The notes: generated by a model from the sequence alone, not told the origin. Counted from the stretch's first letter, positions 2,920 through 61,428 are shown. The stretch is 64,000 bases of DNA from an uncultured Bacilli bacterium (GCA_944332555.1 CALVKF010000001.1:38452-102451), one strand, 5' to 3'. Program-made: numbers and translations.

Positions 2920-2975
2920 TTGCATATACAATATATCATGTATTTTTACCACAAAATCAATAGTTTTTATAAAAT

Positions 2976-4808: not shown

Positions 4809-4818
4809 AATATTCTCC

Positions 4819-6047: not shown

Positions 6048-6362
6048 ATTATCTTTTCTCCTTTATATTCTACTAAAAGTATATCACAAAACTAGTATTT
6101 AAGTAAATAAGGTATTGTAAAATTCTTAAAAATAGTGTATTAAATATACCACATCAATAAATGTTGATGCAATGGTGATTAAGGAATATCTTCATTAAGC
6201 ATATTAGTAGCAAGGGAATATCTTAATGTATGAATTCCTTTTTTATTTGCAAATTTAAAACCAACTATAATTTTTACATTGAAGCTGTTAATAATGCTAC
6301 TGAAATACTGGAAATTTATGGCAGCAATACGATATCATATTGGTAGGAAAGGGATGTCTCAA

Positions 6363-6560
6363 TGAAGTTAATTAATCCATATCCATTAAGAATAGATAAA
6401 GAATTAATGGAAAAACTAAATATATTGCCAATGAAAACTCTAGAAGTGTTAATAGAGAAATAGAATTTGCAATAAAAAAATTAGTAAAAGAATATGAAGA
6501 GGAAAATAATGTTGATATTAGTAAGGTACTAGAAAAAGATAAAGACAAGTTAGGAGTCTA
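6363..6560 (+). pseudogene. Frameshifted remnant of a small ribbon-helix-helix-like protein
   Basis: MKLINPYPLRIDKELMEKLNILPMKTLEVLIEK ends at a stop. The reading frame continues in the +2 frame as EIEFAIKKLVKEYEEENNVDISKVLEKDKDKLGV. The same frame upstream is interrupted by TAG after ...ILEIYGSNTISYW. Confidence 0.3.
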
Positions 6561-6569
6561 ACTTGTCTT
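6542..6569. terminator. Bidirectional terminator hairpin overlapping the gatB 3' end
   Basis: The hairpin is aagacaagtta-ggagtc-taacttgtctt, with T-rich flanks. Confidence 0.5.
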
Positions 6570-7977
6570 TTAATATTTCTTTAGTAATAACTGGATTAGC
6601 TTTACCTTTAGTTTCCCTCATTACTTGGCCTACAAAATAATCAAATAGATTTGTTCTACCATTTTTATAATCTTCTATTTGTTTAGTATTATTTGTAAGG
6701 ATATTATCAATAATAGTTTCAAGTTCATCTTTATTAGATACTTGGGTATTATTACTAATAAATTCTTTTGGTTCTTTATTAGTAGATAAAGATTCATTAA
6801 AGATTTCTTTAGCTTGTTTACTAGATATTGTATTATTATTTATTGCATCAATTATTTCTTTTAGATATGTCGGTGTTATAAAGAAATCTTTAAGCGTTAT
6901 ATCTTCTTTATAAAGGTAAGAAGTAATATTACCTACTAACCAGTTATAAGCACTCTTTACATCTATTCCAATATTAATAGATTCATCAAAATAATCAGCA
7001 TAGTCTTTATCTTTAATAATAAGACTTGCTTCTAGTTCTGTTAAATTATATTTATTTATATAATTTAACTTACGATCTCTTGGTAACATTGGAATATTTT
7101 TCCTTATTTTATCTAAATATTCAGGAGTTATTTTATATTTAGGAAGATTTGGTTCAACAAAGTATTTATAATCAATGGCATCTACTTTACCCCGCATTCT
7201 AATAGTAGTACCACTTTCTTCATCAAATCTTCTCGTTTCTTGTTCTACTTCATCGTACCGGCCTTCTTCTTTAAGTTTTATTTGTCTATGTACTTCATAG
7301 TTTATTGCTTCGCGAACATTAGCAAATGAATTAATATTTTTTATTTCAACTTTAGTACCTAAAGTGGTACTATCTTCATCCGTTATAGATACATTGACAT
7401 CACATCTTATTTGTCCTTTTTTAGTATCGGCATCACTTACATCTAGATATTGATAAATTCTGCGCATTCCTTCTAGAAAAGCTACTGCTTCATCTGCTGA
7501 ATTTAAACAAGGTTCTGTAACTAGTTCTAAAAGAGGTACACCAGAACGGTTATAATCGATTAAAGTTGCATCAGAATAATGATCAAGTGAAGCTGAATCT
7601 TCTTCTAGATGAATATCATGAATGAGCACTGTCTTTTCTTCACCATTACAATCTATTATAACTTTGCCATTTACTCCTATTGGGTCATGCATTTGAGTTA
7701 TTTGATAACCTTTAGGAAGATCGGGATAATAATAGTTTTTCCGATCAAAATAGAAATATTGTGGAACACTACATTTTAGTGCTAAACTCATTAAAATTGC
7801 TTTTCTTACACATTCTTTATTAAGGGTTGGCAAAGTTCCTGGAAAAGCCATATCAAGGGGAGCAACATTATCATTAGCTAGTTCATTATAAGAGTTACGA
7901 GCACTTGAAAACACTTTAGAATTCGAAGTCATTTCACAGTGCATTTCTAGACCTATTACTACCTTTTGTTTATTCAT
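6550..7977 (-). CDS. gatB: Asp-tRNA(Asn)/Glu-tRNA(Gln) amidotransferase subunit B
   Basis: The ORF is 475 aa. The N-terminus MNKQKVVIGLEMHCEM and the overall length are typical of GatB. It lies in a gatC-gatA-gatB operon. Confidence 0.9.
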   Translation of the reverse strand: MNKQKVVIGLEMHCEMTSNSKVFSSARNSYNELANDNVAPLDMAFPGTLPTLNKECVRKAILMSLALKCSVPQYFYFDRKNYYYPDLPKGYQITQMHDPIGVNGKVIIDCNGEEKTVLIHDIHLEEDSASLDHYSDATLIDYNRSGVPLLELVTEPCLNSADEAVAFLEGMRRIYQYLDVSDADTKKGQIRCDVNVSITDEDSTTLGTKVEIKNINSFANVREAINYEVHRQIKLKEEGRYDEVEQETRRFDEESGTTIRMRGKVDAIDYKYFVEPNLPKYKITPEYLDKIRKNIPMLPRDRKLNYINKYNLTELEASLIIKDKDYADYFDESINIGIDVKSAYNWLVGNITSYLYKEDITLKDFFITPTYLKEIIDAINNNTISSKQAKEIFNESLSTNKEPKEFISNNTQVSNKDELETIIDNILTNNTKQIEDYKNGRTNLFDYFVGQVMRETKGKANPVITKEILKDKLDS

Positions 7978-9421
7978 CTTTAACCACCATATCTTTATAA
8001 TTCATTTTACTTTCTAATGCATAAGCAATATTTAGGACACTCACATCATCTTTACAATTACCAGTTATATTAATGCCTACAGGTAAGTTATTTATAAGTC
8101 CATTTGGTATGGTAATTGAAGGGAAGCCTCCGAAATTACCAATTTGTAAGTGCTCTTCTAAAAGAAGAGTATCATCATCATTAAGTTGATCTTTTTCCGT
8201 ATTAAGTAGTGGTGCTGGACCAGTTGAAACTGGTAGGATTAAGGCATTATATGTCTTAAATAATTCCTTCATTTTATCTACTATTAATCTTCTAGCCTTT
8301 TGGGCCCCAACAAAATATCTTTCTTGGTTTTCTTTTTGTAAGATATATGAACCTATGACAAATCTGCGTTTTATAAGAGGTGAAAAGCCTTTAGTCCTAT
8401 GATCTTTCATCATATCAAATACATTATCACCTTGACCGCGAGGGCCAAAAATAATACCTGTCATATTAGATAAATTACTAGTTGCCTCTGCACAAGATAA
8501 ACATACATAAACACTAGGTATTACTTTAAGTAATTCTTTATCGATTGACACTTCATCTATCTCTACTCCTGAAGAGGAAAGAATATCTAATGATTTATGA
8601 AAATTTTCTAAATGTTTTATTAATGCTTCAGTTGCATTTGGGTAATTTACTATATCTACAATTTCTTTAATAAAAAATAGTTTTTTACCCTTTACATTAC
8701 CATTTAAAGATTCATATAAATGAATATTACGGGAATCCCAACTTGTTGCATCTTTTTGATCTTGCCCTTTCATTGCATCAACTACAATCGCCGCATCTTC
8801 AACAGAGCGAGTTAGAACACCACAAGTGTCCAAACTTGATGCAAAAGGAAACAATCCATATCTTGAAATCATACCATAGGTTGGTTTATAACCAACAATT
8901 CCGCAGAAAGCTGCTGGTTTTCTAATTGAGTCTCCAGTATCACTACCTAAAGCATAAGGGTAAATTCCTGCCGCAACCGCCGCCGCCGAACCACTAGAAG
9001 ATCCGGCACAACTTCTTGATAAATCCCAAGGATTGCGAATAATACCAGTATGAGCAGTTGTACCAGTTCCTCCCATACCAAATTCATCCATAGCTGTTTT
9101 ATTTACACCAACAGCACCAGACGCTTTTAAATTAGCTACTGCAGTAGCATCAAAAAATGGAATATAGTCTTTTAAAGTATTACTAGAACCAGTTGAAAGA
9201 ATGCCTTTAGTTGAATAATTATCTTTAATGCCATAAGGAATACCCGATAATAAATTATCAGTTACTTCATTACTTTTAGCATCATCTATAATTGTAACAA
9301 AAGCATTACATGTTTCATTTAACTTATGGGATTTAATTAAAGATTCTTTAATTAAATCATCACTAGTTATTTCCCCATTTTTTAGCATTTCATGTAATTT
9401 AACAATTCCCAGTTCAGTCAT
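7970..9421 (-). CDS. gatA: Asp-tRNA(Asn)/Glu-tRNA(Gln) amidotransferase subunit A
   Basis: The amidase signature GGSSSGSAAAVAAG is present. The start is reassigned to ATG 9421 (MTELGIVKL) behind a GGTGG RBS and 2 nt after the gatC stop. Confidence 0.9.
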   Translation of the reverse strand: MTELGIVKLHEMLKNGEITSDDLIKESLIKSHKLNETCNAFVTIIDDAKSNEVTDNLLSGIPYGIKDNYSTKGILSTGSSNTLKDYIPFFDATAVANLKASGAVGVNKTAMDEFGMGGTGTTAHTGIIRNPWDLSRSCAGSSSGSAAAVAAGIYPYALGSDTGDSIRKPAAFCGIVGYKPTYGMISRYGLFPFASSLDTCGVLTRSVEDAAIVVDAMKGQDQKDATSWDSRNIHLYESLNGNVKGKKLFFIKEIVDIVNYPNATEALIKHLENFHKSLDILSSSGVEIDEVSIDKELLKVIPSVYVCLSCAEATSNLSNMTGIIFGPRGQGDNVFDMMKDHRTKGFSPLIKRRFVIGSYILQKENQERYFVGAQKARRLIVDKMKELFKTYNALILPVSTGPAPLLNTEKDQLNDDDTLLLEEHLQIGNFGGFPSITIPNGLINNLPVGINITGNCKDDVSVLNIAYALESKMNYKDMVVKDE

Positions 9422-9422
9422 C

Positions 9423-9713
9423 TTACACCACCTTTGGTACAACTATTTCTCTATCTTCTGTATTATCACAATTAGCTAGTATTTCTTCAATTGGTACAGA
9501 TTCTTCTGCTGTATCTTCTCTAAGTATTATTTCTGTATCATCTAGGGCATGAGTCATTGGTTCAACATTTTCAATATTCTTCATATTAGCAATAACTTGC
9601 ATAGATTTATCAATTAACTCAAATTCTCTTAAAACCAAATCATTTTCTTCTTTACTTAAACCAATGAGTAATTTATTAGCTAATTCATCAACTAATTCAC
9701 TTGTAAATTTCAT
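9423..9713 (-). CDS. gatC: Asp-tRNA(Asn)/Glu-tRNA(Gln) amidotransferase subunit C
   Basis: The ORF is 96 aa and lies immediately upstream of gatA. The sequence MKFTSELVDELANKLLIGLSKEENDLVLREFE is GatC-like. Confidence 0.85.
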   Translation of the reverse strand: MKFTSELVDELANKLLIGLSKEENDLVLREFELIDKSMQVIANMKNIENVEPMTHALDDTEIILREDTAEESVPIEEILANCDNTEDREIVVPKVV

Positions 9714-10242
9714 TTAATACTTCATCTACCCTTTCATAAAACTCTTCGATTGAACCATTATTCACTATGTAATAATCGGCATTAGCAATCGGTTCACATT
9801 TTCTTATATTTTCAGTTTCCGTTAAATCTCTAGTTGCTGCCTCTTCATAAGTAAGTGGTCTATAATCTCTATTTACTAATCTTTCATAACGAATTTGTTT
9901 ATTTACAACTATAGCAATAGTTACAATATTACTAAAATTTTCCTTTAATATTTTTAATTCATCCCAAGAATAAAGGCTTTCCACAACAACATCACTTGAT
10001 TTTATAGCTTCTTTAATTTTCGGAATATTTAAAGTCGCATAAACACCCATGCCACCATCACACCGTAATTTTTCTCGCATCATTCTTTCATTTTCAGGAC
10101 TTACTTCTAAACCACTTTCTTTAAGCTTATCAAAAGTAACTTCCCCAAAATATATTCTTTTGAAATTTTTCTTTTCTAAATAATCACAAAATACTGATTT
10201 ACCAGAACCACACATACCAAGTATTACAATAATTTTATTCAT
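9697..10242 (-). CDS. P-loop NTPase, nucleotide kinase-like (dephospho-CoA kinase/NMP-kinase fold)
   Basis: The Walker A motif is LGMCGSGKS. The protein is 181 aa and overlaps the gatC start by 17 nt. Confidence 0.5.
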   Translation of the reverse strand: MNKIIVILGMCGSGKSVFCDYLEKKNFKRIYFGEVTFDKLKESGLEVSPENERMMREKLRCDGGMGVYATLNIPKIKEAIKSSDVVVESLYSWDELKILKENFSNIVTIAIVVNKQIRYERLVNRDYRPLTYEEAATRDLTETENIRKCEPIANADYYIVNNGSIEEFYERVDEVLNEIYK

Positions 10243-11075
10243 TTATTACCTCGCAATCTTGCTAAATGTCTTGCATTTGCTTCTTCTAATTCTTTTAATT
10301 CACTATTTTTAAATGTTTTTACTTTACCATTTTCTAAAGCAATAACTAATAATATTTTTTGACAATTAGCATTAATGATCATATCTACTAATCGATCAGT
10401 ATTATTACCTAATTTTAAATCCCTTAATTGTTTTTTAGTATAACCTTCTAAAACATCTCTAGCATCAAGTAAGTTTGGTTTAGGAATAACTTCTTCTTTT
10501 ATTGTTTCATAATATTCTATTAAATCATTATTTATTGTTGCTGTTATGGCATTTCCTAAAGAATTATATAATACTTCTAAATTTAAATCTTGAAATTTAG
10601 AAGTATTGACTTTATCTTTTAAAATATAATAACCGCTTTCATAAAATAAAGTATCTGGTAGTTTTTTATCTTCCCAAATTATACCATTTTCGGTAATTAC
10701 TGTATAAGTAAAATCAAGTCGTTCATTTTTAAAATTACAATTACTTAAAATAACTAAATTACTAGATAAAACTTGAACTTTATCATAATGCTTTTTAGAT
10801 ATATTACCTAAATTATCTATTAAATAATATCCATGATTATCTTTAGCTACAAACAATTTACCATTAATAGTATGAATTAAAGTACCAGGAACAACAAATT
10901 CTTCAAAGTTAGGATCTAGTAAGATAGGTTTGTTAAAAGCAACATACATTAATTTTCCTGCCTCACCATATACTTTTGGTAATTTAGATTCATATAATTT
11001 GGCCCTTTCATCAATTAATCCACTATTACTATTTAAAAATAAATAGTTACTTAAATTATCTTTAATCTCTTCCAT
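10239..11075 (-). CDS. Hypothetical protein
   Basis: A 278-aa ORF is tightly packed between asnS and the kinase-like gene. No recognisable motif was seen. Confidence 0.4.
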   Translation of the reverse strand: MEEIKDNLSNYLFLNSNSGLIDERAKLYESKLPKVYGEAGKLMYVAFNKPILLDPNFEEFVVPGTLIHTINGKLFVAKDNHGYYLIDNLGNISKKHYDKVQVLSSNLVILSNCNFKNERLDFTYTVITENGIIWEDKKLPDTLFYESGYYILKDKVNTSKFQDLNLEVLYNSLGNAITATINNDLIEYYETIKEEVIPKPNLLDARDVLEGYTKKQLRDLKLGNNTDRLVDMIINANCQKILLVIALENGKVKTFKNSELKELEEANARHLARLRGNK

Positions 11076-47350: not shown

Positions 47351-47458
47351 AAAACCTCCCAAACTAAAAGTTATTATATCTATTTTCACCATTTTTGTAA
47401 AGTAAAATCACCAATAAATTTTAAGAACATACCATATTAGTGTAAAAGGAGGATTATT

Positions 47459-47887
47459 GTGTTTAATATATTTACAAATTTATCGTATCCTATGCAAGCC
47501 TTTATTGCTTGTCTATTTACTTGGTTGATTACATCTCTTGGTTCCTCTGTTGTTTTTTTATTTAAAAAAGTTAATAAAACCGTTTTAGATGCAATGCTTG
47601 GTTTTGCTGCGGGAGTAATGATTGCTGCAACATTTTTTTCACTTCTTTCACCTGCAATTGCTATGGCAAATAATTTAGGGATGACTTCTTGGATTGTTGT
47701 ATCATTAGGCTTCTTTGGAGGAGGTTTACTTTTATTTCTTGGTGATATAATTTTTGATTATATTGTTAAAAAGAGAAAAGCTACTCCAAGTAATGCTAAA
47801 AGAATTGTAATGTTAATCTCTTCAATAACTTTACATAACATACCAGAAGGTTTAGATTTATGGGTAGCAATTTGCATTAAAACGTGA
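47459..47887 (+). pseudogene. zupT: ZIP-family zinc transporter ZupT, N-terminal half, disrupted by insertion
   Basis: The GTG start lies behind AAAGGAGG. The ORF ends after LHNIPEGL with 10 junction-derived codons. The C-terminal half resumes at 51195. Confidence 0.7.
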
Positions 47888-47894
47888 TAAAATT

Positions 47895-49649
47895 ATGATA
47901 GGGTGTGATATTATGATAACGAGTAAAGATCTAAAAAATATTGTTAATACTGAATTAAATAAAATATCTACGGTTTCTAGTAGCACAAATCGTGGGGAAT
48001 TTATTTTAGCTAATGATAAAACTAATATTTTAAAAAGTGATATTGAAAAATATAATGCCCTACTACGTATGCAAGAATTACTTGATAATAATTTTTCTAA
48101 TCTTCAAAGTCAATTTGAATTTTTAGATTTAAGCAAACTTACCGGAATTAATTTAAGTGAAGAAGATTATCAACAATTATTAAACCCTAATTATTTAAAA
48201 ATAAAAGATAAAGATAAAATTATAGGTTTAATAAATAAAATATTAAAAGAATCAAATACTAATCGGGGTGAATTTGTTTTAGCTAATGATTCTAGAAGCA
48301 TTTTAAAAAGTGAGGTTCAAAAATATAATGCCCTACTACGTATGCAAGAATTAATAGATAATAATTTTAGTAATTTAGAATATAAATTTGAATATGAAGA
48401 TTTAAGAGATTTTGTTGATCTTGACAATGAAAAACAAGAAATATTAAATCCCCAAGTAGTTTTTGATAATGAATATAAATTAGTTAGTGATCGCATTAAA
48501 AAATTACAAAATACTACTGGTATTAATTTTGAAAAGAATATTGAATATCAAAATTTATTAAAAATGCAAAATTATTTAAATAATAATTTTAAAGATATGC
48601 CTCATACTTATGATTATTTAAATTTAAGAAAAAAGACTAATTTAGATCGAATGGAAGATAATAAATATTTTATGTTAATTTCATCTAAATTACCTAAAAA
48701 AGAAAGTACACAACCAGTTGCAAATACTTCCATAGAAGCTTTAGAACCTATAGAAGTAAAAGAAGAAAAGGAAATAAAACCAGTCATTAAAAACGAAGAA
48801 GTAGAACAAGCAAAACAAGTAAATGAAGTAGCAGAAGAAATAGATACTTTTACTACTAATGTAGATAATGATACATTAAATTCTGAAGAAGTTTTAGATG
48901 TAATTCCCCCACAAGAGGTAGCAGAAGATACTAAAGTGGATGCACTAGTTCAAAATATAGAACCCTATAATTTTTATGGTCAAAAAATAAAAGTGGTTAA
49001 AAAAAGACCATTAACTTGGCTAAATGAACATCGCAAGCAAATACTAATAGCTTTAGCAATTACCGCTTTAGTTATTGCAGTTATTACAACATTCTCTTAT
49101 TTAATACCAGCTTTAACTTCGGCTGCTGAAATTGCAGAAGTATCTACCCTTAGCACTTCAATGGTTAATAATGCGGCCCTATGGCATACTGCTGATGCGG
49201 CGGTTCAAACTACTCTTCATGCCCAAAATGTTGCCCTAGCTCAAAGCTTGCAAAATATTGCAGGAATTAAAACCACTTATGAGACAGCTACTGGAATATG
49301 GACTATCGGAGGCATGGAATTATCCCAATTTGCAACAGCTGCTACTATGAGTGCTCAAAATGCTATAGCAGCAACCACTACTACTGCTAATACCCTTTTA
49401 GGCATCTCTACTGCTGGATCACTTATAGGAGTCCTTGGAGCAATAGTTCCTAATAAAAAGTCAGATGAATATCTAAAATATAAAGAAAAAATACAAGAAT
49501 GGGGAGCATTAGATACATCCGCCCAACAACAAATATTAAAAGATATTCATAATTCTAATTTAAGTGATAATGAAAAAAATAGACTTCTAAAAAAAATAGA
49601 TAAATTACAAAATAAAATAGAAAATTATGATAAAAATATAGGGAGATAG
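47895..49649 (+). CDS. Element cargo: hypothetical repeat-containing membrane protein
   Basis: The protein is 584 aa. A ~100-aa unit (NRGEFxLAND..ILKSxxxKYNALLRMQELxDNNFSNL) is repeated twice. A central hydrophobic segment is ILIALAITALVIAVITTF. The C-terminus is coiled-coil-like. Confidence 0.5.
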   Translation: MIGCDIMITSKDLKNIVNTELNKISTVSSSTNRGEFILANDKTNILKSDIEKYNALLRMQELLDNNFSNLQSQFEFLDLSKLTGINLSEEDYQQLLNPNYLKIKDKDKIIGLINKILKESNTNRGEFVLANDSRSILKSEVQKYNALLRMQELIDNNFSNLEYKFEYEDLRDFVDLDNEKQEILNPQVVFDNEYKLVSDRIKKLQNTTGINFEKNIEYQNLLKMQNYLNNNFKDMPHTYDYLNLRKKTNLDRMEDNKYFMLISSKLPKKESTQPVANTSIEALEPIEVKEEKEIKPVIKNEEVEQAKQVNEVAEEIDTFTTNVDNDTLNSEEVLDVIPPQEVAEDTKVDALVQNIEPYNFYGQKIKVVKKRPLTWLNEHRKQILIALAITALVIAVITTFSYLIPALTSAAEIAEVSTLSTSMVNNAALWHTADAAVQTTLHAQNVALAQSLQNIAGIKTTYETATGIWTIGGMELSQFATAATMSAQNAIAATTTTANTLLGISTAGSLIGVLGAIVPNKKSDEYLKYKEKIQEWGALDTSAQQQILKDIHNSNLSDNEKNRLLKKIDKLQNKIENYDKNIGR

Positions 49650-49651
49650 AT

Positions 49652-49903
49652 ATGAATATAAATGATTGTATAGAACTTGAAAATGGTAAAAATTATTTAT
49701 TATTACTTGAAAGTATGTTAGATAAAAATAAATACTTCCTAGCAGTAGGAATTACTAATGATCTACCCAATGGTGAATATATAGTATTACAAGAAGTAAT
49801 AGATGATAATGATACTTTTGTAATACCTATAAATGATCCTATTATTCTTGGTAATTTAATTAAAGAATTTCAAGAAGATTATAATGAAGAATATAACGAT
49901 TAA
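49652..49903 (+). CDS. Element cargo: DUF1292-like acidic small protein
   Basis: The ORF is 83 aa. Its pattern resembles the chromosomal YrzB/DUF1292 gene at 27424. Confidence 0.45.
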   Translation: MNINDCIELENGKNYLLLLESMLDKNKYFLAVGITNDLPNGEYIVLQEVIDDNDTFVIPINDPIILGNLIKEFQEDYNEEYND

Positions 49904-50003
49904 GATATTTCATATATCTTTTTTTTATACATATTATTAAATATGAAAAAATTTAAATATTATTTAATATATTCAAATAAAAAAATAAAGGAATTAATTA
50001 AAA

Positions 50004-51164
50004 ATGTTAAATAAAGCAGCATTATATATTAGATTATCTAAAGAAGATAAAAATGAATCTATTAATAATCAAAAACAATTATTAATAAAATATGCTAGTG
50101 AAAATAATATCTCTATCCATGATATTTATATTGATGATGGTTATACCGGAACTAACTTTAATAGACCAGCATTTAATAAATTACTAACAGATATTAATAA
50201 CAAATTAATTGATACTATTATTGTAAAAGATTTATCAAGACTAGGAAGAGATTACATTAAAACAGGAGAATTAATAGAACACTACTTCCCTACCCATAAT
50301 ATTCGTTTTATTGCTATAAATGATTCTATTGATACAATTACTAATAATGCTAATATTGATATAGCTCCCTTTAAATATATTTTAAATGATTTATATGCTA
50401 AAGATCTATCTAAAAAAATTAGAAGTGCTAGAAAAACTATGCAAGAAGCCGGTTTATGGGTAGGAGGTTGTATTCCTCTTGGATATATGCAAAGTACATT
50501 AAATAATAATAAATTAGTTATAAATAAAAAAGAAGAATATATAGTTAAAAAAATATTTAACTTATATTTAAATAATAAAAGTATCAATGATATTAAAAAT
50601 ATATTAAATCAAGAAAATATTCCAACATTTTCTAAATTAAGAAAAAATATTAATAATTCATGGACTAATCAAAGTATCAAAAAGATATTAACTAACCCTA
50701 TTTATACAGGAACCCTCACTCAGAATAAACAACAAAGATTAAGTTATAAATATCGTCATATTATCAATAATCCTAAAGAAGATTGGATTATAGTTAATAA
50801 TACTCATGAAAGTATTATTAACTATAATGATTTTATAAAAGTAAATAAAACACTAAATACCAAGAAAAAATCTAACAAACTAAAAGCTCATTTATTAGAT
50901 AATTTATTATATTGTTATGAATGTAAACATCATCTAGGTATTAGGAAAATAAAAAATAAGTACTATTTATGTTGTAATAATTATCGCTATAATAAATTAA
51001 ATTGTACTGCTCATGGTTTTAATTATCATACTTTAGAAAATGATATTAAAGAAATACTTTATACTAAATTTAATATTAATATAACTAGAGATATATTATT
51101 AAAATTAATAGAAAGAATAGAAATATCCCAAAATAAAAAAGTATTTATTTTTTTTAAGTTCTAA
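50004..51164 (+). CDS. Large serine recombinase (resolvase/invertase N-domain plus recombinase domain plus zinc ribbon)
   Basis: The N-terminus AALYIRLSKEDKNESINNQ carries the catalytic Ser. The motif DLSRLGRD is present. The zinc ribbon is CYECKHHLG...CCNNYRY...CTAH. The protein is 386 aa. Confidence 0.8.
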   Translation: MLNKAALYIRLSKEDKNESINNQKQLLIKYASENNISIHDIYIDDGYTGTNFNRPAFNKLLTDINNKLIDTIIVKDLSRLGRDYIKTGELIEHYFPTHNIRFIAINDSIDTITNNANIDIAPFKYILNDLYAKDLSKKIRSARKTMQEAGLWVGGCIPLGYMQSTLNNNKLVINKKEEYIVKKIFNLYLNNKSINDIKNILNQENIPTFSKLRKNINNSWTNQSIKKILTNPIYTGTLTQNKQQRLSYKYRHIINNPKEDWIIVNNTHESIINYNDFIKVNKTLNTKKKSNKLKAHLLDNLLYCYECKHHLGIRKIKNKYYLCCNNYRYNKLNCTAHGFNYHTLENDIKEILYTKFNINITRDILLKLIERIEISQNKKVFIFFKF

Positions 51165-51194
51165 TTACATACCAGAATATACATACCAGAAGGT

Positions 51195-51599
51195 ATGTCT
51201 ATTGGTGTAGCATTTGGTTCAATTTTTTATGGTATTGAAGGAGCTACAGTATCTGCAGCTATAATGCTTGCTTTAGGTATAGGTATTCAAAACTTTCCTG
51301 AAGGATCAGCAGTATCCCTACCATTAAGACGTGAAGGTTTATCAAGAAAAAAAGCATTTTTCTTCGGTTCCCTTAGTGGCATTGTTGAACCAATATCCGC
51401 AGTAATTGGAGCAATACTAGTATTAAAAGTACAATTTTTATTACCAATATTATTATCATTTGCGGCTGGTGCAATGATTTATGTAGTAATACAAGAATTA
51501 ATACCTGAAAGTCAAACCAATAAAAGAAAAAACCTAATGGCATTATTCACCATATTAGGTTTTGTTATAATGATGATTTTTGACGTAGCCCTAGGTTAA
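51195..51599 (+). pseudogene. zupT: ZupT C-terminal half
   Basis: The sequence MSIGVAFG...IQNFPEGSAVSLPL continues the ZIP-family motifs. Confidence 0.7.
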
Positions 51600-51600
51600 G

Positions 51601-51619
51601 TGATATCAGAGATATCACT
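51601..51619. terminator. Palindromic hairpin between zupT and the convergent paralog gene
   Basis: The hairpin is gtgatatcagagatatcac. Confidence 0.4.
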
Positions 51620-51623
51620 TTTG

Positions 51624-52844
51624 TTATACCACCAAACGAATTGGGTCAGATTGTGTCCCTGTTCCGCTAGAATATTGAACATTTGAGTTGAGGTAAAAGA
51701 CAGGACGGACCCTAGCGGAACTACTATTTAAAATAACATAATTATAAATATACCCCCAACCAATTACATAGAAAACTATATTCGAATTGTCTGAATGGCG
51801 AGTAATTGTCCATTCATCAGAACCCAGATACATCCAATCATAATCTTGGGCTCCTTCATCATATTTATTTAATGGTGTTGCCCAATAATCTGAACTGGCC
51901 GCAAATCCATAATCACTTACATACATTAATCCTATCTTTGCATCATATGTTGTACTACTACTATTTACTCCTACTTCGTAATTATATGCTGTTTGTGGTG
52001 TGCCTGTTCCATTTGATCTGCTCATTCCTCCGACTTTCCAGTTATGATATGATATCAAACTGTCCCAAGAATTCCCAATATTGGTTAAATAAACTTGATT
52101 TAAATTTACTGTATTTAAATTTGATTCACTCCATACATTTGTATTTGTATTATTGTTCCAACGATATTGATACCCCGAATAATATGCTCCATCAGTTCCT
52201 AATAAATTGGTTAATGCAGCAGTTGATTTAATTAATTTTATCTCTGAACCAAACACTCCTATGATTCTGTACAAGTTATCTTCGGGACATATTGTAGCAT
52301 CTGAACCAAAACAAACATAGTTATTTGGATTAGCTCCCGCATATCTATAACTATTATCTCCAGCACCATTCACTAAATCTGCATCATGATAATATATTCC
52401 ATTATCCATATCTCCTGTTATATTATAATAATTTATGATGCATTCCGATAGAGTTTCATCTGGATTACAAACAGAAGCTAAATTAACTTTTTTATCAAAA
52501 TATACATAACAGGCATCAGAAGAGTTAGCTAATAACTTAACACTATTAGTACTACTATCCCATGATAATTCACCGCCATTTTGACAAGCACTTAAAGTTC
52601 CATTAAATTCATAATCATCCCCTGGCCAAGTACCAGATGTTGATTCTTGATACTGTCCACTACCCGCTTCAGTTTCAAGCATAAGCGTTAGAAAACCACC
52701 AATTTGGTTTTCTACTTTTTCTTCTACTTTGGCTTGATATATTTCACTATCAGTAGTTTTATTTACATAAAAATAAATACCTATACCAAGTATAATTACT
52801 AATAAACTACTTATACTAATTAATGCTATTTTTCTTTTACTCAT
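51624..52844 (-). CDS. Membrane-anchored surface protein, paralog family member 2
   Basis: An N-terminal transmembrane helix is followed by the domain SGQYQESTSGTWPGDDYEFNGTLSACQNGGELSWD...CYVYFD. The shared W-rich C-terminal domain ends DPIRLVV. Confidence 0.6.
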   Translation of the reverse strand: MSKRKIALISISSLLVIILGIGIYFYVNKTTDSEIYQAKVEEKVENQIGGFLTLMLETEAGSGQYQESTSGTWPGDDYEFNGTLSACQNGGELSWDSSTNSVKLLANSSDACYVYFDKKVNLASVCNPDETLSECIINYYNITGDMDNGIYYHDADLVNGAGDNSYRYAGANPNNYVCFGSDATICPEDNLYRIIGVFGSEIKLIKSTAALTNLLGTDGAYYSGYQYRWNNNTNTNVWSESNLNTVNLNQVYLTNIGNSWDSLISYHNWKVGGMSRSNGTGTPQTAYNYEVGVNSSSTTYDAKIGLMYVSDYGFAASSDYWATPLNKYDEGAQDYDWMYLGSDEWTITRHSDNSNIVFYVIGWGYIYNYVILNSSSARVRPVFYLNSNVQYSSGTGTQSDPIRLVV

Positions 52845-52859
52845 TACTACTCAACTCCT

Positions 52860-52924
52860 CGTATTATCAATACGGTTATATTACAATTTAATTATATTAT
52901 AATAAAAAACGTATGTCAATACGG
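52860..52924. promoter_or_regulatory. Two palindromic operator-like sites CGTATT-N3-AATACG
   Basis: The sites are cgtattatcaatacgg at 52860..52875 and cgtatgtcaatacgg at 52910..52924. They lie in the divergent promoter region between paralog 2 and the XRE gene. Confidence 0.4.
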
Positions 52925-52944
52925 TTTTTGATATAAATAGCTTG

Positions 52945-53193
52945 ATGATTGATATAATTCAAATGGTGAAAATAATGGAAATAAAAGCAAATAAGTATAA
53001 AGCGAACGAAATACTTAAATTTATAAGACAAAATACTAATTTAACTCAAAAAGAATTTGCTAAAGGAGTTAATAAATCAGAAGATTGGGAATACTCTAAT
53101 GAAGCTGGTAGAAGCAGATACTATTTTAGTGATTTAATTGAAATTTGTAATAAGTATGATTTAGAAATTATTATTAAAGACAAAGAAAAATAA
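52945..53193 (+). CDS. XRE-like HTH regulator
   Basis: The HTH motif is NLTQKEFAKGVNKSEDW. The real start is probably ATG 52975 (MEIKANKY) behind GGTGA. Confidence 0.55.
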   Translation: MIDIIQMVKIMEIKANKYKANEILKFIRQNTNLTQKEFAKGVNKSEDWEYSNEAGRSRYYFSDLIEICNKYDLEIIIKDKEK

Positions 53194-53195
53194 AG

Positions 53196-53227
53196 AAAAA
53201 TGCATTATTTTGCATTTTTCTTTATTT
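53196..53227. terminator. Bidirectional terminator
   Basis: The hairpin aaagaaaaatgca-ttatt-ttgcatttttcttt has a perfect 13-bp stem. Confidence 0.6.
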
Positions 53228-53283
53228 TACATTAACAATATTTCTTAACATTTTTTAAGTAATAATATCAGAAATTACATTTG

Positions 53284-54945
53284 TTATACTACCAAACGAA
53301 TTGGATCAGAACTTGTTCCTGTACCACTAGCATATTCTACATTGGAATTTAAGTAAAATGTTGGTCTAACTTCATTAGTATTATTATAGACATTATCATT
53401 ACTAATAATACCACCATAAGTACTATATACACGAAATGCATAACGAGACTGATCCAAATAACGAGTAATAAGCCACTCACTAGAACCCAGATATAACCAG
53501 TTATTATTTGCTACATTACTATAATTATTTAAATGTGTTGTCCAATATGTATTGCTTGTTCCAAAACCATAATCACTTATATACATTAATCCTATTTTAG
53601 CAATATATGTTGTACTACTACTATTTGTTCCTACTTCATAGCTATATGCTATTTGTGGTGTACTTTGTCCATTCGAAGAAAATATTCCTCCAACTTTCCA
53701 TATATGATTTGTTATTTTACTATTCCAAGTATTCCCTAAACTATTTAAATATGTCTCATTCAATACATTAGTATTTAATGTGCTTTCGCTCCATACATCA
53801 CTTCTATTAGTAGATGAACCGCTCCAACGATAACTTCCATAACTTATATTTTTTATTAGTTTAACCTCTCCATCAAAAATCCCAATAATCCGATATAGGT
53901 TATTACTTGGGCAGGTTGCTGCATCTGAACCAAAACATACATAATTATTTGGATTTGCTCCAGCATATCTATATGAATTATCCCCAGCTGAATTTGCTAG
54001 TGAACTGGTATGATAATATATGCCATTTGAACCTTGACTTGTATATAATCCTTTTATATAATCAGCTAATAATATTATATTTTCTGTTTCGGCATTTATT
54101 GTATATACATTGGAATCTACTCCGTTAGTATCTCTTACATATACTCTTATACTATAACTTTGTCCTGCACTTAGTCCACTAAATGTATAACTGTTTGAGC
54201 TACTACTTGTGTATGAACCATTATTTATTGAATAATAATATGTTTGAATAGTATTTGTTCCTGCACTTGCACTCACACTTACTGTTATACTATTATTACT
54301 TACACTTGTTGCTGTTACACTATTGACTACTGGATTTACATATGCATCTGTTATTACTTCTATTATCTCTTCATTTGATTCATAACCTTCACTATCTACT
54401 GCATATACTTGGAATGTGTATTTAGTATTATCTGTTAGATTACTAAAAGTATAACTTGATGTATTACTTGTTTGATAACTATTTCCTCCATCCATACTAA
54501 AGTAATATGTTGCTACTGGATTTTCTCCAGCATCTACTGTTACTGTTAAAGTAACACTATTAGTTGTTTTAGTTGCAGATACATTTGTAATAGTTACTAC
54601 ATTATATAAATCAAAATATACATAACAACCATCAGATTTATTACTTAATAATTCTACTATGCCATTTTCTCTATCCCATCTAAGTTCTCCGCCATTTTCA
54701 CATCTACTTAATTCACTATTAAATGCATAATTACCACTTGGCCATGTGTTAGTTGTTGATTCTTGATATGTTCCATCACTTTGTTCTAACATTAATGTTA
54801 GAAATGAATTATTGATTAAATTTTTATCATTATTACTTAATACAATATTTTCTTCACTTTTAAATAAAGTAAGTGACAATGTAATAGCAAATATTGCTAT
54901 TACAAATATAGTGCTTATTCCAATTAATACTTTTTTATTTTTCAT
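53284..54945 (-). CDS. Membrane-anchored surface protein, paralog family member 3, with three FN3-like repeats
   Basis: The start is reassigned to ATG 54945 (MKNKKVLIGISTIFVIAI). It has the same N-domain and C-terminal W-rich domain as member 2. The FN3-like repeats contain the blocks VTLTVTVDAG...YTFSNLTDNTKYTFQVYAVD. Confidence 0.65.
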   Translation of the reverse strand: MKNKKVLIGISTIFVIAIFAITLSLTLFKSEENIVLSNNDKNLINNSFLTLMLEQSDGTYQESTTNTWPSGNYAFNSELSRCENGGELRWDRENGIVELLSNKSDGCYVYFDLYNVVTITNVSATKTTNSVTLTVTVDAGENPVATYYFSMDGGNSYQTSNTSSYTFSNLTDNTKYTFQVYAVDSEGYESNEEIIEVITDAYVNPVVNSVTATSVSNNSITVSVSASAGTNTIQTYYYSINNGSYTSSSSNSYTFSGLSAGQSYSIRVYVRDTNGVDSNVYTINAETENIILLADYIKGLYTSQGSNGIYYHTSSLANSAGDNSYRYAGANPNNYVCFGSDAATCPSNNLYRIIGIFDGEVKLIKNISYGSYRWSGSSTNRSDVWSESTLNTNVLNETYLNSLGNTWNSKITNHIWKVGGIFSSNGQSTPQIAYSYEVGTNSSSTTYIAKIGLMYISDYGFGTSNTYWTTHLNNYSNVANNNWLYLGSSEWLITRYLDQSRYAFRVYSTYGGIISNDNVYNNTNEVRPTFYLNSNVEYASGTGTSSDPIRLVV

Positions 54946-54972
54946 ATAATCTAATACACATCCTTTATCATT

Positions 54973-55014
54973 TGTACACAATTGTATTATACCATACACA
55001 TGTGTACATTTCAA
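54973..55014 (-). promoter_or_regulatory. Promoter TTGAAA-17-TATAAT for paralog 3, with an overlapping 9-bp inverted repeat ATGTACACA-N20-TGTGTACAT
   Basis: The -35 hexamer lies at 55014..55009 and the -10 hexamer at 54991..54986 on the minus strand. The IR arms at 54973..54980 and 55001..55008 bracket the spacer. Confidence 0.55.
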
Positions 55015-55062
55015 TATTAAAGCAAACATAATATAATAAATGTAAAAGAAAGGAGTGCACAT

Positions 55063-57836: not shown

Positions 57837-59825
57837 TTAAGCTAATTTAAATCTTTTTTTATCAATAAATAGAATTATTTCTTCTAAATACATTCCGGTA
57901 TCAGGTACTTTAATACTGATCTTCTTATTAGTAATATTAACTGTAATTACTTCAGAACTTTCTAATATATTAAAATATATCTTATCACTTAATACTTGAT
58001 AACCCGGGCTTGCAACACTCTCTTTAATATAATAACTTCCAAGTGGTAATTCTAAAACTTCTAATACTCCCAAATTATTAGTTAGACCACTAAAAATTAA
58101 TGCCCCATCTTCATTAAATATATTAAAACCTGTTCCTTCCAGAGGTAAATTATTATCTCCAATCTTATTAATTATTAATTTCCCCTTCTTTAAATAATTA
58201 CTAATAGTTACTTCTTCTTCACTATTTTCTTTGACTATTACTTTATAGTAATTTTCATCTAATTCATATTCTACTAAATTACTTAATTCTCTTACATAAT
58301 ATTTACCACATACTAAATTATCAAATATTACTTCGCCATATTCATTAGTAGTACTCACTTTAACTAAATTTTTATTTTGATCATATAATCCAATTTCTAT
58401 ATTTTTAGCTAAGGCCATATCTTTATTAGCTAATTCCTTATATTTTATCACCTTTACTTTACCTTTTTTTAATTCATTATACACTTTTATTTCCTCCACA
58501 CTTCCTTCATTATTAACTATTTTTACTTCAACTATAAAATCATCACTAACTATATAATCATCTTTTTTAGTTAATTCTTTTATTTTATATTTACCTAACT
58601 CTAAATTATCAAATATAATTTCCCCATCTTGATTAGTTTTATTAGTCCTAATTAAATTATCAAACATATCATATAAACCAAATTCAATACCACTAGCTAA
58701 TACATATTTTAGCTCTTGATCAAATTCTTCTTGATATTTAATTATTTTTATTTGACCAGTAATCTTTTTATTATAAAAATCAACATTTATATTACTAGCA
58801 TTTAAAAAAATATCTAAATATTCATCATTAATCATATACCCTGTAATAACTTGGGTATTATCTTCTTTCAAATAATATTTACCTACTTTTAAATTATTAA
58901 ATATCGCCATACCATCAGCATTAGTTTTTGTTGTACTTACTAAATTATGTTCTTCATCATAAAGTAAAAACTTAATACCTGCGATATTTAGATTTTCTAA
59001 AGTATCATAATCTTTTTTAAATACAGTTATTTGACAAGGAATAATATTGATATTTATCTTTATTTCTTGATCAGAAATATTTCCTACAGCCATAGCTTTT
59101 TGACTTTCAGAATCAATATATACTAATGCTGAAGTTTCATAATTATCACTTTTTTTTACTAATTCAATGGCAAAACTCCCTATTTTATTACCATTTATTT
59201 TTAATTTATTGTCCTGAATTTGAACTAAATCAAAATCTTCAATTATTTCATAATCACTTAATACCCCACTAGCATCAGTAATAATGGTATCTTCTCCATA
59301 TAAAAGATTTACATCATTTAATGCAGGTAACAATTTATGTCTACTGACTAAAGATTCAATTTCTTTTATTTCATCTTGATATAAATTATTGTTAATATTG
59401 CCCCCTAAAGTGTCTGTAAAATAAAACTGGGCATTCGGAGCAACTTTTCGCCAAATCATCATTTGCGTAATATAATACCAATAATCTTCAGTATGATCAT
59501 CATACATATACCCATAATAAGCAATCAATGAAATATCTTCCCAAACTTCTTCACTAATATTTAAATCATCTAAAAAGTCCTTACTATACTCTTCATATTC
59601 ATCTCCATCAATTAATGCAATAAATGGCTCTAAACAATAAACAAAAGCATTATCACTAACTCGTCTTAAAAAACCACCTTGTTTATTAGTTATTTTACCT
59701 GATTCATCAATTTTTCTAATAAACATACCCGGTATTTTATCCCCAACATATATTCTTTCACTACTAGCACTAACTACATTTGTAGCTAATAAAAAACCTA
59801 TTAAAAAAAATATTACTTTCTTCAT
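57837..59825 (-). CDS. Thioester-domain (TED) surface adhesin with five CnaB-like repeats and a C-terminal VPDTG sorting-like signal
   Basis: A signal peptide is present. The sequence FVYCLEPF...YYITQMMIW is the Cys/Gln thioester motif pair. The block GxxFxLYD...TNxxGxxxFxNLxxGKYxxKE is repeated 5 times. The C-terminus reads KVPDTGMYLEEIILFIDKKRFKLA. Confidence 0.6.
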   Translation of the reverse strand: MKKVIFFLIGFLLATNVVSASSERIYVGDKIPGMFIRKIDESGKITNKQGGFLRRVSDNAFVYCLEPFIALIDGDEYEEYSKDFLDDLNISEEVWEDISLIAYYGYMYDDHTEDYWYYITQMMIWRKVAPNAQFYFTDTLGGNINNNLYQDEIKEIESLVSRHKLLPALNDVNLLYGEDTIITDASGVLSDYEIIEDFDLVQIQDNKLKINGNKIGSFAIELVKKSDNYETSALVYIDSESQKAMAVGNISDQEIKININIIPCQITVFKKDYDTLENLNIAGIKFLLYDEEHNLVSTTKTNADGMAIFNNLKVGKYYLKEDNTQVITGYMINDEYLDIFLNASNINVDFYNKKITGQIKIIKYQEEFDQELKYVLASGIEFGLYDMFDNLIRTNKTNQDGEIIFDNLELGKYKIKELTKKDDYIVSDDFIVEVKIVNNEGSVEEIKVYNELKKGKVKVIKYKELANKDMALAKNIEIGLYDQNKNLVKVSTTNEYGEVIFDNLVCGKYYVRELSNLVEYELDENYYKVIVKENSEEEVTISNYLKKGKLIINKIGDNNLPLEGTGFNIFNEDGALIFSGLTNNLGVLEVLELPLGSYYIKESVASPGYQVLSDKIYFNILESSEVITVNITNKKISIKVPDTGMYLEEIILFIDKKRFKLA

Positions 59826-59940
59826 TCCAAACCTCCTTTGCTAATATTTTTTTTAAATTTCTAATTTCATTTATCACCTCCCTCTATTATATATTTTCAA
59901 CAAAAGTAGTCAAAATTCTTTTTTTTAGCCAAATTTTTTT

Positions 59941-59965
59941 CTAAAAACAAAAAAAACGTTCATTC
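59941..59965 (-). terminator. Terminator downstream of the DUF4176 gene
   Basis: On the minus strand the hairpin is aacgttcgaatgaacgtt, followed by tttttttg. Confidence 0.5.
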
Positions 59966-60010
59966 GAACGTATAATTTGTGTAAACCAATGTCAAACTTG
60001 ACATTACTAT

Positions 60011-60649
60011 TTATTCATTAAAAATAATTCCATCTTCGGTAAATTTATATGTAGGAATATCTATTTTTATTTCATCAGTTTTAGCATCTTGATTATTTTC
60101 CAAAACATTATTTAAATTATTTTCAATATTCTCTTTATCCTTAAGAGCTAAATCATCAGTTAAAACTGCAGCGTTATTTTGTTCTATGACCGGAATAGCA
60201 CTTGGAGCACTATTAGAAACTGGTGTTTCAAATGGATTTTTAACTTCCATAGAATCTAATAATTCTACTAGATGCGAAACTGATTTAGAATCAGTAAATT
60301 CATCATATGCAACTACTCCATTAGCATCATATTTGACATTGACAAAATTATCATCTTTCTTATAATCTTTAGTATCTTGATTATTTTGTCCCAACATATT
60401 ATTATTTAAAATACCAAATGATTCATCTTTAAAGCCCTCGAATAACACATTAGTTATATCACTATGATTAAAAGCAAAAGTGTTACCTAAAAGAGTTCCT
60501 TCGGGATAACTTATACCTATATAATCATACATTTTAACAACATTTTGATATTTTATAGCATAGTATCCTACGATCATTACACTTTTATTAGTATCATTTA
60601 TAGTTACAATACTACCTATTGGTAAATATTTATCTTTCACTAATCTCAC
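60011..60649 (-). CDS. DUF4176-family protein (common in T7SSb/LXG loci)
   Basis: The N-terminus MRLVKDKYLPIGSIVTINDTNKSVMIVGY matches the DUF4176 opening. Confidence 0.55.
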   Translation of the reverse strand: MRLVKDKYLPIGSIVTINDTNKSVMIVGYYAIKYQNVVKMYDYIGISYPEGTLLGNTFAFNHSDITNVLFEGFKDESFGILNNNMLGQNNQDTKDYKKDDNFVNVKYDANGVVAYDEFTDSKSVSHLVELLDSMEVKNPFETPVSNSAPSAIPVIEQNNAAVLTDDLALKDKENIENNLNNVLENNQDAKTDEIKIDIPTYKFTEDGIIFNE

Positions 60650-60658
60650 CCTTTTCTT

Positions 60659-61036
60659 TTATTTAGCTTGCATTTGTTTTTCTCTAACAATATCTAATAC
60701 TCCCAGCATATTATCTACTAAAATATATAAAAATTGTCTTTCAATATTAGATAATTTTCCAGGAATATATTCAGCTCCACTTTTTCTTACTTCATCAGAA
60801 ATATTTACTCCTACAGCTGATGCTTCTTCTTGAATCATTTGTTGAATCAATTTAACATGTTCTTCAGTTAATACTCCCTTTTCTTCAACTTTATTTTGAC
60901 TTTTCATAATATCAGCCATTTTTGGTTTATCTTTTTTTCTTAAATATCCATCAATTAATAATTGAACTATTGAATTAAATTGCATTTGGGCTTCTACATC
61001 ATTATTAAAGCCAACATTCACACCTAAATCATTCAT
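60659..61036 (-). CDS. Hypothetical small protein downstream of the LXG-like gene
   Basis: The start is taken at ATG 61036 behind GGAGG (MNDLGVNVGF...), 2 nt after the stop of the upstream gene. Confidence 0.4.
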   Translation of the reverse strand: MNDLGVNVGFNNDVEAQMQFNSIVQLLIDGYLRKKDKPKMADIMKSQNKVEEKGVLTEEHVKLIQQMIQEEASAVGVNISDEVRKSGAEYIPGKLSNIERQFLYILVDNMLGVLDIVREKQMQAK

Positions 61037-61038
61037 TA

Positions 61039-61428
61039 TTAACCTCCATTTATCCAATTATATACTGTACCTAAACGAGCTCTATCAACACTTGACGCAC
61101 TTACTTCTTCTGCTAAAGCTTGCATATCATTAACAGATTTTCTAATATTATTTACTAATCCATCAATAATATCATTGTAAGATACTATTTGTCCATTCAA
61201 AAATTCTGTTAAATTTCTAACATTATTTCCTAATGTAACTGATGTTTCATCAATTACATTTATACAAGTATTTAATAAATTATTTAATTGTTGAGTTTGA
61301 ATATTTCTATTCAAAGACAATAATAGTTCTCTTATTTGTGGATAATAAGATTGAGTAAGTGTATCATTATTATTACTTATACTACTATTTATTCCTCTTA
61401 ATGTTTCTGGATCTAAATTTACATACAT
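61039..61428 (-). CDS. LXG-like N-domain-only protein
   Basis: The ORF is 129 aa. It is homologous to the N-terminus of the 62426..63472 product (MYVNLDPETL vs MFIDVDLQVL; LTEFLNGQI vs TNLNGLEENI). Confidence 0.45.
   Translation of the reverse strand: MYVNLDPETLRGINSSISNNNDTLTQSYYPQIRELLLSLNRNIQTQQLNNLLNTCINVIDETSVTLGNNVRNLTEFLNGQIVSYNDIIDGLVNNIRKSVNDMQALAEEVSASSVDRARLGTVYNWINGG

Follow-up and report, generated by a model that had tools for sequence, protein, structure and literature searches.

In the gene-intervening elements skin (recombinase SpoIVCA, in sigK), SPbeta (SprA-SprB, in spsM), gin (GirC-GirX, in gerE of B. cereus) and the fdxN element of Anabaena (XisF), an insert bounded by a large serine recombinase (LSR) interrupts a coding gene; precise deletion restores the reading frame, and inheritance is vertical and fixed (PMC5595907; PMC4191935; PMC5499854). 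As gin illustrates, such elements need not be prophages (PMC5595907). Here we examine a cassette of ~3.3 kb which interrupts the zinc transporter gene zupT in a 64-kb stretch of DNA from an uncultured gut Bacilli bacterium; this whole stretch is referred to below as the window. The element had been proposed from inspection of the sequence alone (hereafter the sequence-only reading), and we followed it up by sequence comparison, drawing on assembled contigs (L-numbers) and proteins (P-numbers). The cassette shares with the known elements an LSR-bounded insert in a coding gene under purifying selection, a conserved open reading frame (ORF) that is restored by deletion, and vertical, fixed inheritance. 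It differs from them in that its target is a housekeeping metal importer, in a host with no sign of differentiation in the data at hand; in that it is far smaller (3.2-4.5 kb across the lineages which carry it) and has a host-type operon as cargo; and in that its LSR has no coiled coil and no candidate for a directionality factor was found. In our reading, to which we assign a probability of roughly 0.55, the cassette is a domesticated minimal remnant of an integrative and conjugative element (ICE), comprising a coiled-coil-less LSR, two att sites and a two-gene operon, and works as an excision switch of low frequency, independent of any directionality factor. A literature search found no paper linking zupT with a serine recombinase.

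Both halves of the interrupted gene exceed the gathering score for PF02535, and the HNxPEG and QNFPEG motifs can be read in their translations (Table 1). The Glu of HNxPEG is a metal-binding residue of ZIP transporters, in which the motif lies within the metal-binding transmembrane helix 4. As the sequence-only reading had it, the gene is split exactly by the element: the break falls at 47851/51195, and joining 47459-47851 to 51195-51599 yields a ZIP protein of 265 aa with 79-82% identity, over its full length, to intact orthologues. The restored junction reads HNIPEG/MSIGVAFG, where the syntenic intact orthologues have HNIPEGMAIGVAFG. Among interrupted species the C-terminal half is 85-98% identical. 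The N-terminal ORF (47459..47887, plus strand) runs past TLHNIPEG, which ends at 47851, through 11 unrelated codons of the cassette to a stop at 47885-47887.

The sequence-only reading had also noted a 14-bp repeat, ACATACCAGAAGGT, at both junctions, with a partial copy just inside the right end, and had described them as flanking direct repeats. The copies are there, exact at the two junctions and with two mismatches in the third. The 14-mer has no further match in the 64 kb, where 0.27 matches are expected by chance and three were reached in 0 of 100 shuffles, and in the window the likeness between attL and attR extends weakly to 35 nt. Their reading as a flanking duplication does not hold up. 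In L091 and L103, attL reads CCAGATGG and attR reads CCTGAAGG, with GA alone in common and a mismatch on either side; because these junctions share only GA, exchange takes place at that dinucleotide. In L093, L109, L111 and L113 there is a single mismatch, immediately 3' of GA. The crossover GA corresponds to bases 9-10 of the 14-mer and is thus inside the repeat. A target-site duplication was rejected, as the common core is reduced to GA in sister species; judged from these junctions, the 14-bp repeat is a similarity between attP and attB around a 2-bp crossover and not a duplication made by insertion. The partial copy is the outer part of the left arm of attP, which reads CTACCCATAAAT in other species, and is therefore not a true third repeat.

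When the two ends of the gene are rejoined, attB is ACATACC-AGAA-GGTATGT, a perfect 7-bp inverted repeat with GA at its centre. The attP inferred by placing the right end before the left spans ~50 bp and forms an imperfect inverted repeat (in L089, for example, GCTACCCATAAATAATATACC-AGAA-GGTTTAGTAAAAATGGGTAG), the arms of which are conserved between species. For the window, the predicted junction sequences are ...TTACATAACATACCAGAAGGTATGTCTATTGG... for attB and ...AGAATATACATACCAGAAGGTTTAGATTTATGGG... for attP. The att sites thus have the architecture of serine-integrase sites, with a GA crossover.

A trace of recombination at these sites is preserved in a metagenome contig of the window species, L085, in which positions 3826-10543 comprise the N-terminal half of zupT, the cassette, the cassette again and the C-terminal half of zupT, with the two head-to-tail copies identical over 3352 bp. 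Where the copies meet, the sequence agrees exactly with the attP predicted (attR-left plus attL-right), ...CAGAATATACATACCAGAAGGTTTAGATTTATGGG.... The contig may represent a true tandem array, arising for instance by attL x attR exchange between sister chromosomes, or the loop of a circular copy walked twice by the assembler. The sample must hold reads spanning the attP junction, because the assembler could not otherwise have built the contig; the junction therefore exists in at least one natural sample. A scan of JGI metagenomes with a degenerate att pattern returned nothing.

The protein encoded beside the right junction is, as had been proposed, a large serine recombinase of 386 aa. It matches PF00239 (E 7.5e-25, residues 5-150), PF07508 (E 6.5e-23) and PF13408 (E 7.9e-7); the catalytic motifs YIRLS and SRLGRD are invariant in our alignment, as are the zinc-ribbon cysteines C304, C307, C324 and C334. 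The catalytic domain resembles those of TnpX and TP901-1, with TnpX the best match among solved structures (E 7e-25). What the sequence-only reading missed is the absence of the coiled coil, which is seen on alignment with relatives of 513-534 aa. About 100 alignment columns of these long relatives are absent in all members of 382-416 aa, and the gap, between the second zinc-ribbon cysteine pair and the last strands, is the coiled-coil segment. Long and short proteins share about 50-55% identity, and the window LSR covers only positions 88-438 of the 651 in the PHROG integrase profile. Three of the four structural features of the LSR family are thus present, the coiled coil being the exception.

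The long relatives indicate where this enzyme came from. The gene for P0037 (534 aa, 54-55% identity) lies directly beside a fragment of the ZIP C terminus and is the last one in an element that also encodes a TraG/VirD4-type coupling protein and a sortase; the P0102/L090 element occupies the same motif in a ZIP gene just 36% identical to that of the window. Because both elements sit at that motif, the LSR clade is seen to target DNA encoding HNxPEG. The ICE and phage serine integrases whose attB sites lie in conserved genes, including the sister clade of P0037, P0074 and P0102, share with the window enzyme the same three domains, the HNxPEG target in a ZIP gene and the position of the recombinase as last gene beside attR. 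The sister clade keeps the coiled coil and is found at the end of large transfer-competent elements or, in L090, by a likely addiction module, whereas in the window LSR ~100 residues and all transfer functions have been lost. On this comparison, the window LSR is a natural coiled-coil deletion of an ICE integrase.

Two features of the sister elements may be recorded here. In L099-L102 (e.g. L099 6833-11923), a 534-aa LSR relative ends a coupling-protein/sortase element at the second HNxPEG of a ZIP gene, and the insertion leaves a ZIP C-terminal fragment of 94-95 aa. In L090 (686-4067), an unrelated ZIP gene holds a 2.6-kb sister element whose integrase has its full length of 533 aa; the 668 aa of the deposited 'fusion' to Zip are obtained only by translating TGA as Trp. 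On the opposite strand of this element, a 156-aa gene, the protein of which has no Pfam match, is preceded by a tandem repeat of 49 nt x 3.2 (1666-1824), a layout typical of type III toxin-antitoxin systems.

The coiled-coil deletions engineered in the integrases of LI/A118 and phiC31 lack the same part of the zinc-ribbon region as the window LSR. Those mutants are laboratory constructs, whereas the deletion in the window clade is natural, clade-wide and under purifying selection. Without its coiled coil, LI integrase gives a small yield of product on both attP x attB and attL x attR with no directionality factor, while the wild-type enzyme, likewise without that factor, gives no product on attL x attR (PMC5499577, PMC10754689). 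Given these results, autonomous, weak and possibly reversible excision is a reasonable prediction for the window enzyme, although not a proven one.

The transposons Tn4451 and Tn5397 are likewise small non-phage LSR elements. Their recombinases, TnpX and TndX, cross over at a GA dinucleotide and need no separate factor for excision; they are about 530-710 aa long, have long C-terminal regions and use many GA-containing targets, and Tn4451 travels with a mobilisation gene and Tn5397 with conjugation genes. The zupT cassette, unlike these transposons, has a single target and no mobilisation, conjugation or resistance genes. Another comparison is with the phage regulatory switches of 'active lysogeny', such as the comK prophage of Listeria, in which reversible or conditional excision of an integrated element switches a host gene on again. 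Active-lysogeny elements are full prophages able to replicate or reintegrate, whereas the cassette has 3.3 kb and no replication or packaging genes. A prophage or phage satellite was also considered as an identity for the cassette itself and rejected: the only PHROG match is to integrase, phage records reach at most 36% identity, and IMG/VR gave one unrelated match at 24%.

Wherever its contigs were read, the cassette was in the same place. The window recombinase belongs to a cluster of 99% identity on 23 contigs, and all eight of the places read show the same split zupT. LSRs of 382-416 aa with 55-81% identity share the site, gene order and synteny (MurF-Lon-zupT...ABC...MutS), and 7/7 clade members of at least 55% identity whose contigs were read occupy the same zupT site. 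In total, the cassette interrupts zupT in at least eight species-level lineages (the window species, L089, L091/92, L103-105, L109, L093/94, L113/114 and L111/112). A split zupT without a recombinase in related genomes would have spoken against the element; every split zupT found carries it.

Neighbour-joining trees on few taxa, together with identity matrices, for the host proteins Lon and MutS broadly match the LSR tree: in both sets L091 and L103 are sisters, the window falls in a five-lineage group, L093 and L113 lie further out and L111 furthest. For the closest pair, L091/L103, synonymous divergence (dS) is 0.52 for the recombinase, 0.53 and 0.46 for the cargo genes, 0.37-0.47 for the zupT halves, 0.70 for Lon and 0.72 for MutS; in all other pairs dS is near saturation for every gene. 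The cassette is never younger than the genomes carrying it. It has been inherited vertically at zupT since before at least eight species-level lineages of low-GC gut Bacilli diverged.

Two syntenic relatives have an intact zupT, L095, which branches beside the five-lineage group of the window, and L001, which is found among the carriers as sister to L113. The simplest account of both is secondary loss by precise excision. The sequence-only reading had suggested that related strains might supply the empty attB site, and this search came back empty: among 5.8 billion proteins we found no intact ZupT more than 82% identical to the restored protein of the window, and none with at least 90% identity to the other interrupted lineages tested.

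These data bear on the alternative that the cassette is an active small integrative mobilisable element, site-specific for zupT, which hitch-hikes on conjugative elements and was acquired separately in each lineage. That its nearest full-length relatives are integrases of conjugative elements with the same HNxPEG target, that an unrelated ZIP gene is occupied by a 2.6-kb sister element whose integrase is full-length, that L085 holds an attP junction and that two syntenic lineages are without the cassette could all be explained in this way. On the other hand, searches of the cargo proteins against Pfam, PHROG and PADLOC detected no relaxase and no oriT-associated, replication or transfer protein, and a coupling protein occurs only beside the distant relative P0037. 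Cassette dS is similar to host dS, the LSR tree follows the host tree, and LSR similarity between species is never above that of host genes. Within each species the cassette is fixed, and no assembly showed an empty site; neither another locus nor another host group was found to carry it, and its LSR lacks the coiled coil on which efficient attP x attB synapsis depends. We therefore regard separate acquisition of a mobilisable element as unlikely. By the tests run, the cassette is neither an ICE nor a mobilisable element, and neither a prophage nor a Tn4451-type transposon; it is fixed in its syntenic position, diverges together with its hosts and is not behaving as a currently mobile element. 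What stands of the serine-recombinase element originally proposed is a discrete cassette of ~3.3 kb whose precise removal restores zupT; current mobility does not.

Selection has acted on both the interrupted gene and the recombinase. Between carrier species, the ratio of nonsynonymous to synonymous divergence (dN/dS) is 0.03-0.12 for the zupT halves (N-terminal half 0.06-0.12, C-terminal half 0.03-0.10) and 0.14-0.20 for the recombinase, against 0.05-0.32 for the small cargo gene and 0.21-0.60 for the large one. Purifying selection thus acts on the recombinase as well as on each half of zupT.

An account with no rearrangement at all, in which the ZupT fragments cooperate as a split transporter or in which the cassette is an inert fossil within a gene that the cell can do without, has in its favour that both halves are intact ORFs, that the C-terminal half starts with a native Met codon right after attR and that assemblies yielded no empty site. 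The break, however, lies inside the HNxPEG motif. In 6/8 lineages the codon for its Glu is GAT in attL, giving Asp (HNIPDG) for an invariant residue in the N-terminal half, and it is GAA in attR in 8/8; in those six lineages Glu exists only after recombination, because the right junction supplies the A that makes GAA. The tail which follows PEG or PDG in the N-terminal half varies from 1 to 16 residues and is not conserved between species, and the sole Shine-Dalgarno-like sequence before the ATG of the C-terminal half (GAAGG) is 1 nt away from it. For a fossil, dN/dS of 0.03-0.20 in zupT and the recombinase over dS of 0.5-1 is not expected, and the attP junction in L085 shows that recombination occurs. 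Both the fossil and the working split protein are thus argued against by the selection, promoter conservation, Glu codon, tail and Shine-Dalgarno data, which favour reconstitution by excision, and we consider an account without rearrangement very unlikely.

The cargo consists of two genes. The larger had been described as a 584-aa repeat-containing membrane protein, and this description was borne out, with internal repeats of 273-nt spacing and a membrane hairpin; only its start has been moved, 47913 (578 aa) being more likely than the opening of the ORF. The protein has two to four N-terminal units of ~90 aa, predicted to be cytoplasmic, followed by an acidic linker, a membrane hairpin of two helices whose outside loop is conserved, and a last helix at the C terminus. 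Its AlphaFold2 (AF2) model is confident at residues 10-265 only. As had been stated, it is uncharacterised, with no match in Pfam, PHROG or PADLOC, nor to the PDB by Foldseek, and the whole family numbers only 86 proteins. The gene is the fastest evolving of the cassette, with 35-42% identity between species, and the most variable within species as well.

The small cargo protein had been called DUF1292-like. Of the family, 8 of 45 members match DUF1292 (PF06949, best E 2.5e-6); the window protein itself falls below threshold, and the L091 orthologue reaches E 8e-4 and 20.6 bits against a cut-off of 24. We found 51 representative relatives. The fold is predicted with high confidence (AF2 predicted local distance difference test score, pLDDT, 92.7) and has no significant match in the PDB.

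The cargo pair also occurs without recombinase or zupT at chromosomal loci, in L106-L108 and L006. In the former it lies between amidase and pseudouridine synthase genes, near rpsI, rplM and whiA; in L006 it comes after valS, with an intact zupT 1.7 kb downstream on the same strand. Among the cassette versions of the small protein, those of L093 and L113 are nearest to that of L106 (66-68% identity). Because the pair is found at recombinase-free loci, the cargo is a host-type operon and not a mobility or directionality module. The 64-kb window has no second locus of the L106 type. At these other loci (L106 7001-9283, L107, L108 and L006 2429-4345) the homologues form an operon with its own promoter-like region and terminator and no recombinase nearby.

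Two roles for the cargo were considered and set aside. The 83-aa protein is unlikely to be a directionality factor: it always accompanies the large membrane protein, it is present at the recombinase-free loci, and the LSR lacks the coiled coil through which such factors act. A defence system was rejected as PADLOC gave nothing meaningful.

The question of a directionality factor also bears on the possibility that excision of the cassette is timed by development, as in gene-intervening elements like skin, SPbeta or gin, and confined to a terminal cell type in which ZupT is needed, while the germline of a differentiating (for example, sporulating) host retains it. The known cases follow the same logic: an LSR precisely restores a coding gene, and the element is fixed and passed on vertically; gin in gerE provides a non-phage precedent (PMC5595907), and terminal excision would account for the long persistence of an element that is lost on excision. 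Set against this, zupT is a general metal importer and not a sporulation gene. The window is a housekeeping stretch, in a Bacilli genome of ~25% G+C, carrying gatAB, asnS, hisS, aspS behind a T-box, relA, tig, mltG, tgt, ddl, a Mur ligase gene, lon and mutS, together with a 6S RNA; it shows no clear sporulation marker, the sole match being SpoVB, below cut-off, and the SpoVB family also covers general flippases. Moreover, the known cases use a directionality factor that acts via the coiled coil, whereas here the coiled coil is gone, no factor is evident and the small cargo protein, found recombinase-free elsewhere, is unlikely to be one. Developmental timing therefore seems improbable for this cassette.

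The domesticated excision switch which we favour would work as follows. The recombinase would delete the cassette by attL x attR exchange at GA, rejoining zupT and restoring the Glu codon of HNxPEG. Since the coiled coil normally blocks attL x attR, its absence would permit excision without a directionality factor, inefficiently and possibly reversibly. A population would then keep an interrupted 'germline' and yield a minority of zupT-ON cells, which would carry a non-replicating 3.3-kb circle or the tandem products of exchange between sister chromosomes. In the integrated state, the cargo operon would lie downstream of the zupT promoter, and the recombinase would have its own conserved upstream block.

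Several points weigh against this reading, and it needs to be interpreted cautiously. The excision product, attB, of any interrupted species was not found in assemblies, and the evidence of activity shown here is a single contig, L085. A non-replicating circle is lost, so the cassette could persist in the long term only if it reintegrates, if excision is very rare or if cells without the cargo pay for its loss in fitness. In the LSR tree the branching of L093 and L113 is not resolved. phiC31 integrase is fully inactivated by deletion of its coiled coil (PMC10754689), and loss of the coiled coil could mean that the window enzyme is dead or crippled; a dead enzyme is argued against because the recombinase is under purifying selection. 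Lastly, the regulatory role of the TATGAAAAAATTTAAATATTATTTAAT block and read-through from the zupT promoter are suggested by sequence alone. Excision as the mode of action is well supported, if indirectly, next to the age, anatomy and selection pattern documented above. The broader proposal, that a whole clade of coiled-coil-less LSRs has long been retained as a self-contained OFF/ON switch of zupT, free of a directionality factor, with the cargo present when OFF and no known cell differentiation, is put forward tentatively, as an idea that we hold to be possible and not yet probable.

The non-coding features of the locus are listed in Table 1. The promoter region of zupT is conserved equally in interrupted and intact lineages (eight species compared), and the ribosome-binding site AAGGAGG precedes the GTG start. 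The consensus scan revealed no terminator between the N-terminal half of zupT and the cargo operon. The block TATGAAAAAATTTAAATATTATTTAAT upstream of the recombinase gene is kept even in L093, the most distant lineage aligned, despite synonymous sites near saturation, and is probably a promoter or operator.

Table 1. Features of the interrupted zupT locus in window coordinates.
Feature	Position	Strand	Basis or remark
zupT promoter and leader region, common with divergent lon	47393..47458	+	mean column identity 78% over 8 species
zupT N-terminal half, 131 codons to HNIPEG	47459..47851	+	Pfam Zip profile positions 5-102
attL (attB left half + attP right half), crossover GA at 47846-47847	47816..47880	+	attL/attR comparison, 8 lineages
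Left 14-bp repeat copy, ACATACCAGAAGGT	47838..47851	+	exact match
Large cargo gene, 578 aa from 47913 (ORF opens 47895, 584 aa)	47913..49649	+	start as chosen by gene callers in sister contigs
Small cargo gene, 83 aa, distant DUF1292-like beta-meander + helix	49652..49903	+	always paired with large cargo gene
Terminator-like hairpin and T-run after cargo operon	49902..49928	+	fold -6.6 kcal/mol, z-score -2.7; stem and T-run kept in 6 species
Conserved non-coding block TATGAAAAAATTTAAATATTATTTAAT, 27 nt, upstream of recombinase gene	49942..49968	+	nearly invariant in 6 species
Large serine recombinase, 386 aa, without coiled-coil motif	50004..51164	+	Pfam Resolvase, Recombinase, Zn_ribbon_recom
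attR (attP left half + attB right half), crossover GA at 51189-51190	51150..51215	+	attL/attR comparison
2-mismatch copy of 14-mer	51167-51180		inside attR
Right 14-bp repeat copy, ACATACCAGAAGGT	51181-51194		exact match, inside attR
zupT C-terminal half, 134 codons, starts MSIGVAFG	51195..51599	+	Pfam Zip profile positions 193-322 of 323
Terminator-like hairpin closing zupT	51598..51620	+	consensus scan: 10-pair stem, T-rich tail

Some further observations concern the surroundings of the cassette. In the zupT/lon intergenic region, an inverted repeat TAAAAT-N9-ATTTTA at 47403-47423 of the window is present in all eight species compared, interrupted and intact, and is a candidate regulator site. 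It does not fit the Firmicutes Zur box, and no Zur-box-like operator was recognisable by eye upstream of zupT. Adjoining zupT on the other side (51624-55062, minus strand), two paralogous secreted or membrane-anchored proteins of 406 and 592 aa share a C-terminal domain ending in SDPIRLVV, and the longer one has fn3 repeats. This surface-protein locus is strain-variable, with 144, 265, 564 or 604 aa in the same-species contigs L081-L088. At 57837-61428 (minus strand), a 662-aa pilin-like protein (SpaA-fold, thioester, SdrD_B) is followed by a DUF4176 protein, in a neighbourhood kept in all related contigs. Near the start of the window (1743-4808, minus strand), an Abi_2 protein, of abortive-infection-like type, lies beside a HerA/DUF87-type ATPase which resembles anti-phage HerA, below family cut-offs; this may be a defence island.

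If our reading is true, the cassette illustrates the reduction of a conjugative element to an integrase and its att sites, which the host then kept. Nature would already hold a minimal serine integrase of 386 aa that excises on its own, and the short LSR family would provide a natural setting in which to test the coiled-coil model of serine-integrase directionality; a cofactor-free integrase of 382-416 aa, with attB and attP of ~40-50 bp, would also be a compact tool for DNA excision and inversion circuits. Gene-intervening elements would then not be limited to spore-formers and heterocyst-formers. Reconstitution of genes by recombinases would reach a general zinc-uptake gene in uncultured gut Bacilli, which would suggest that such switches are more widespread than the few known developmental cases.

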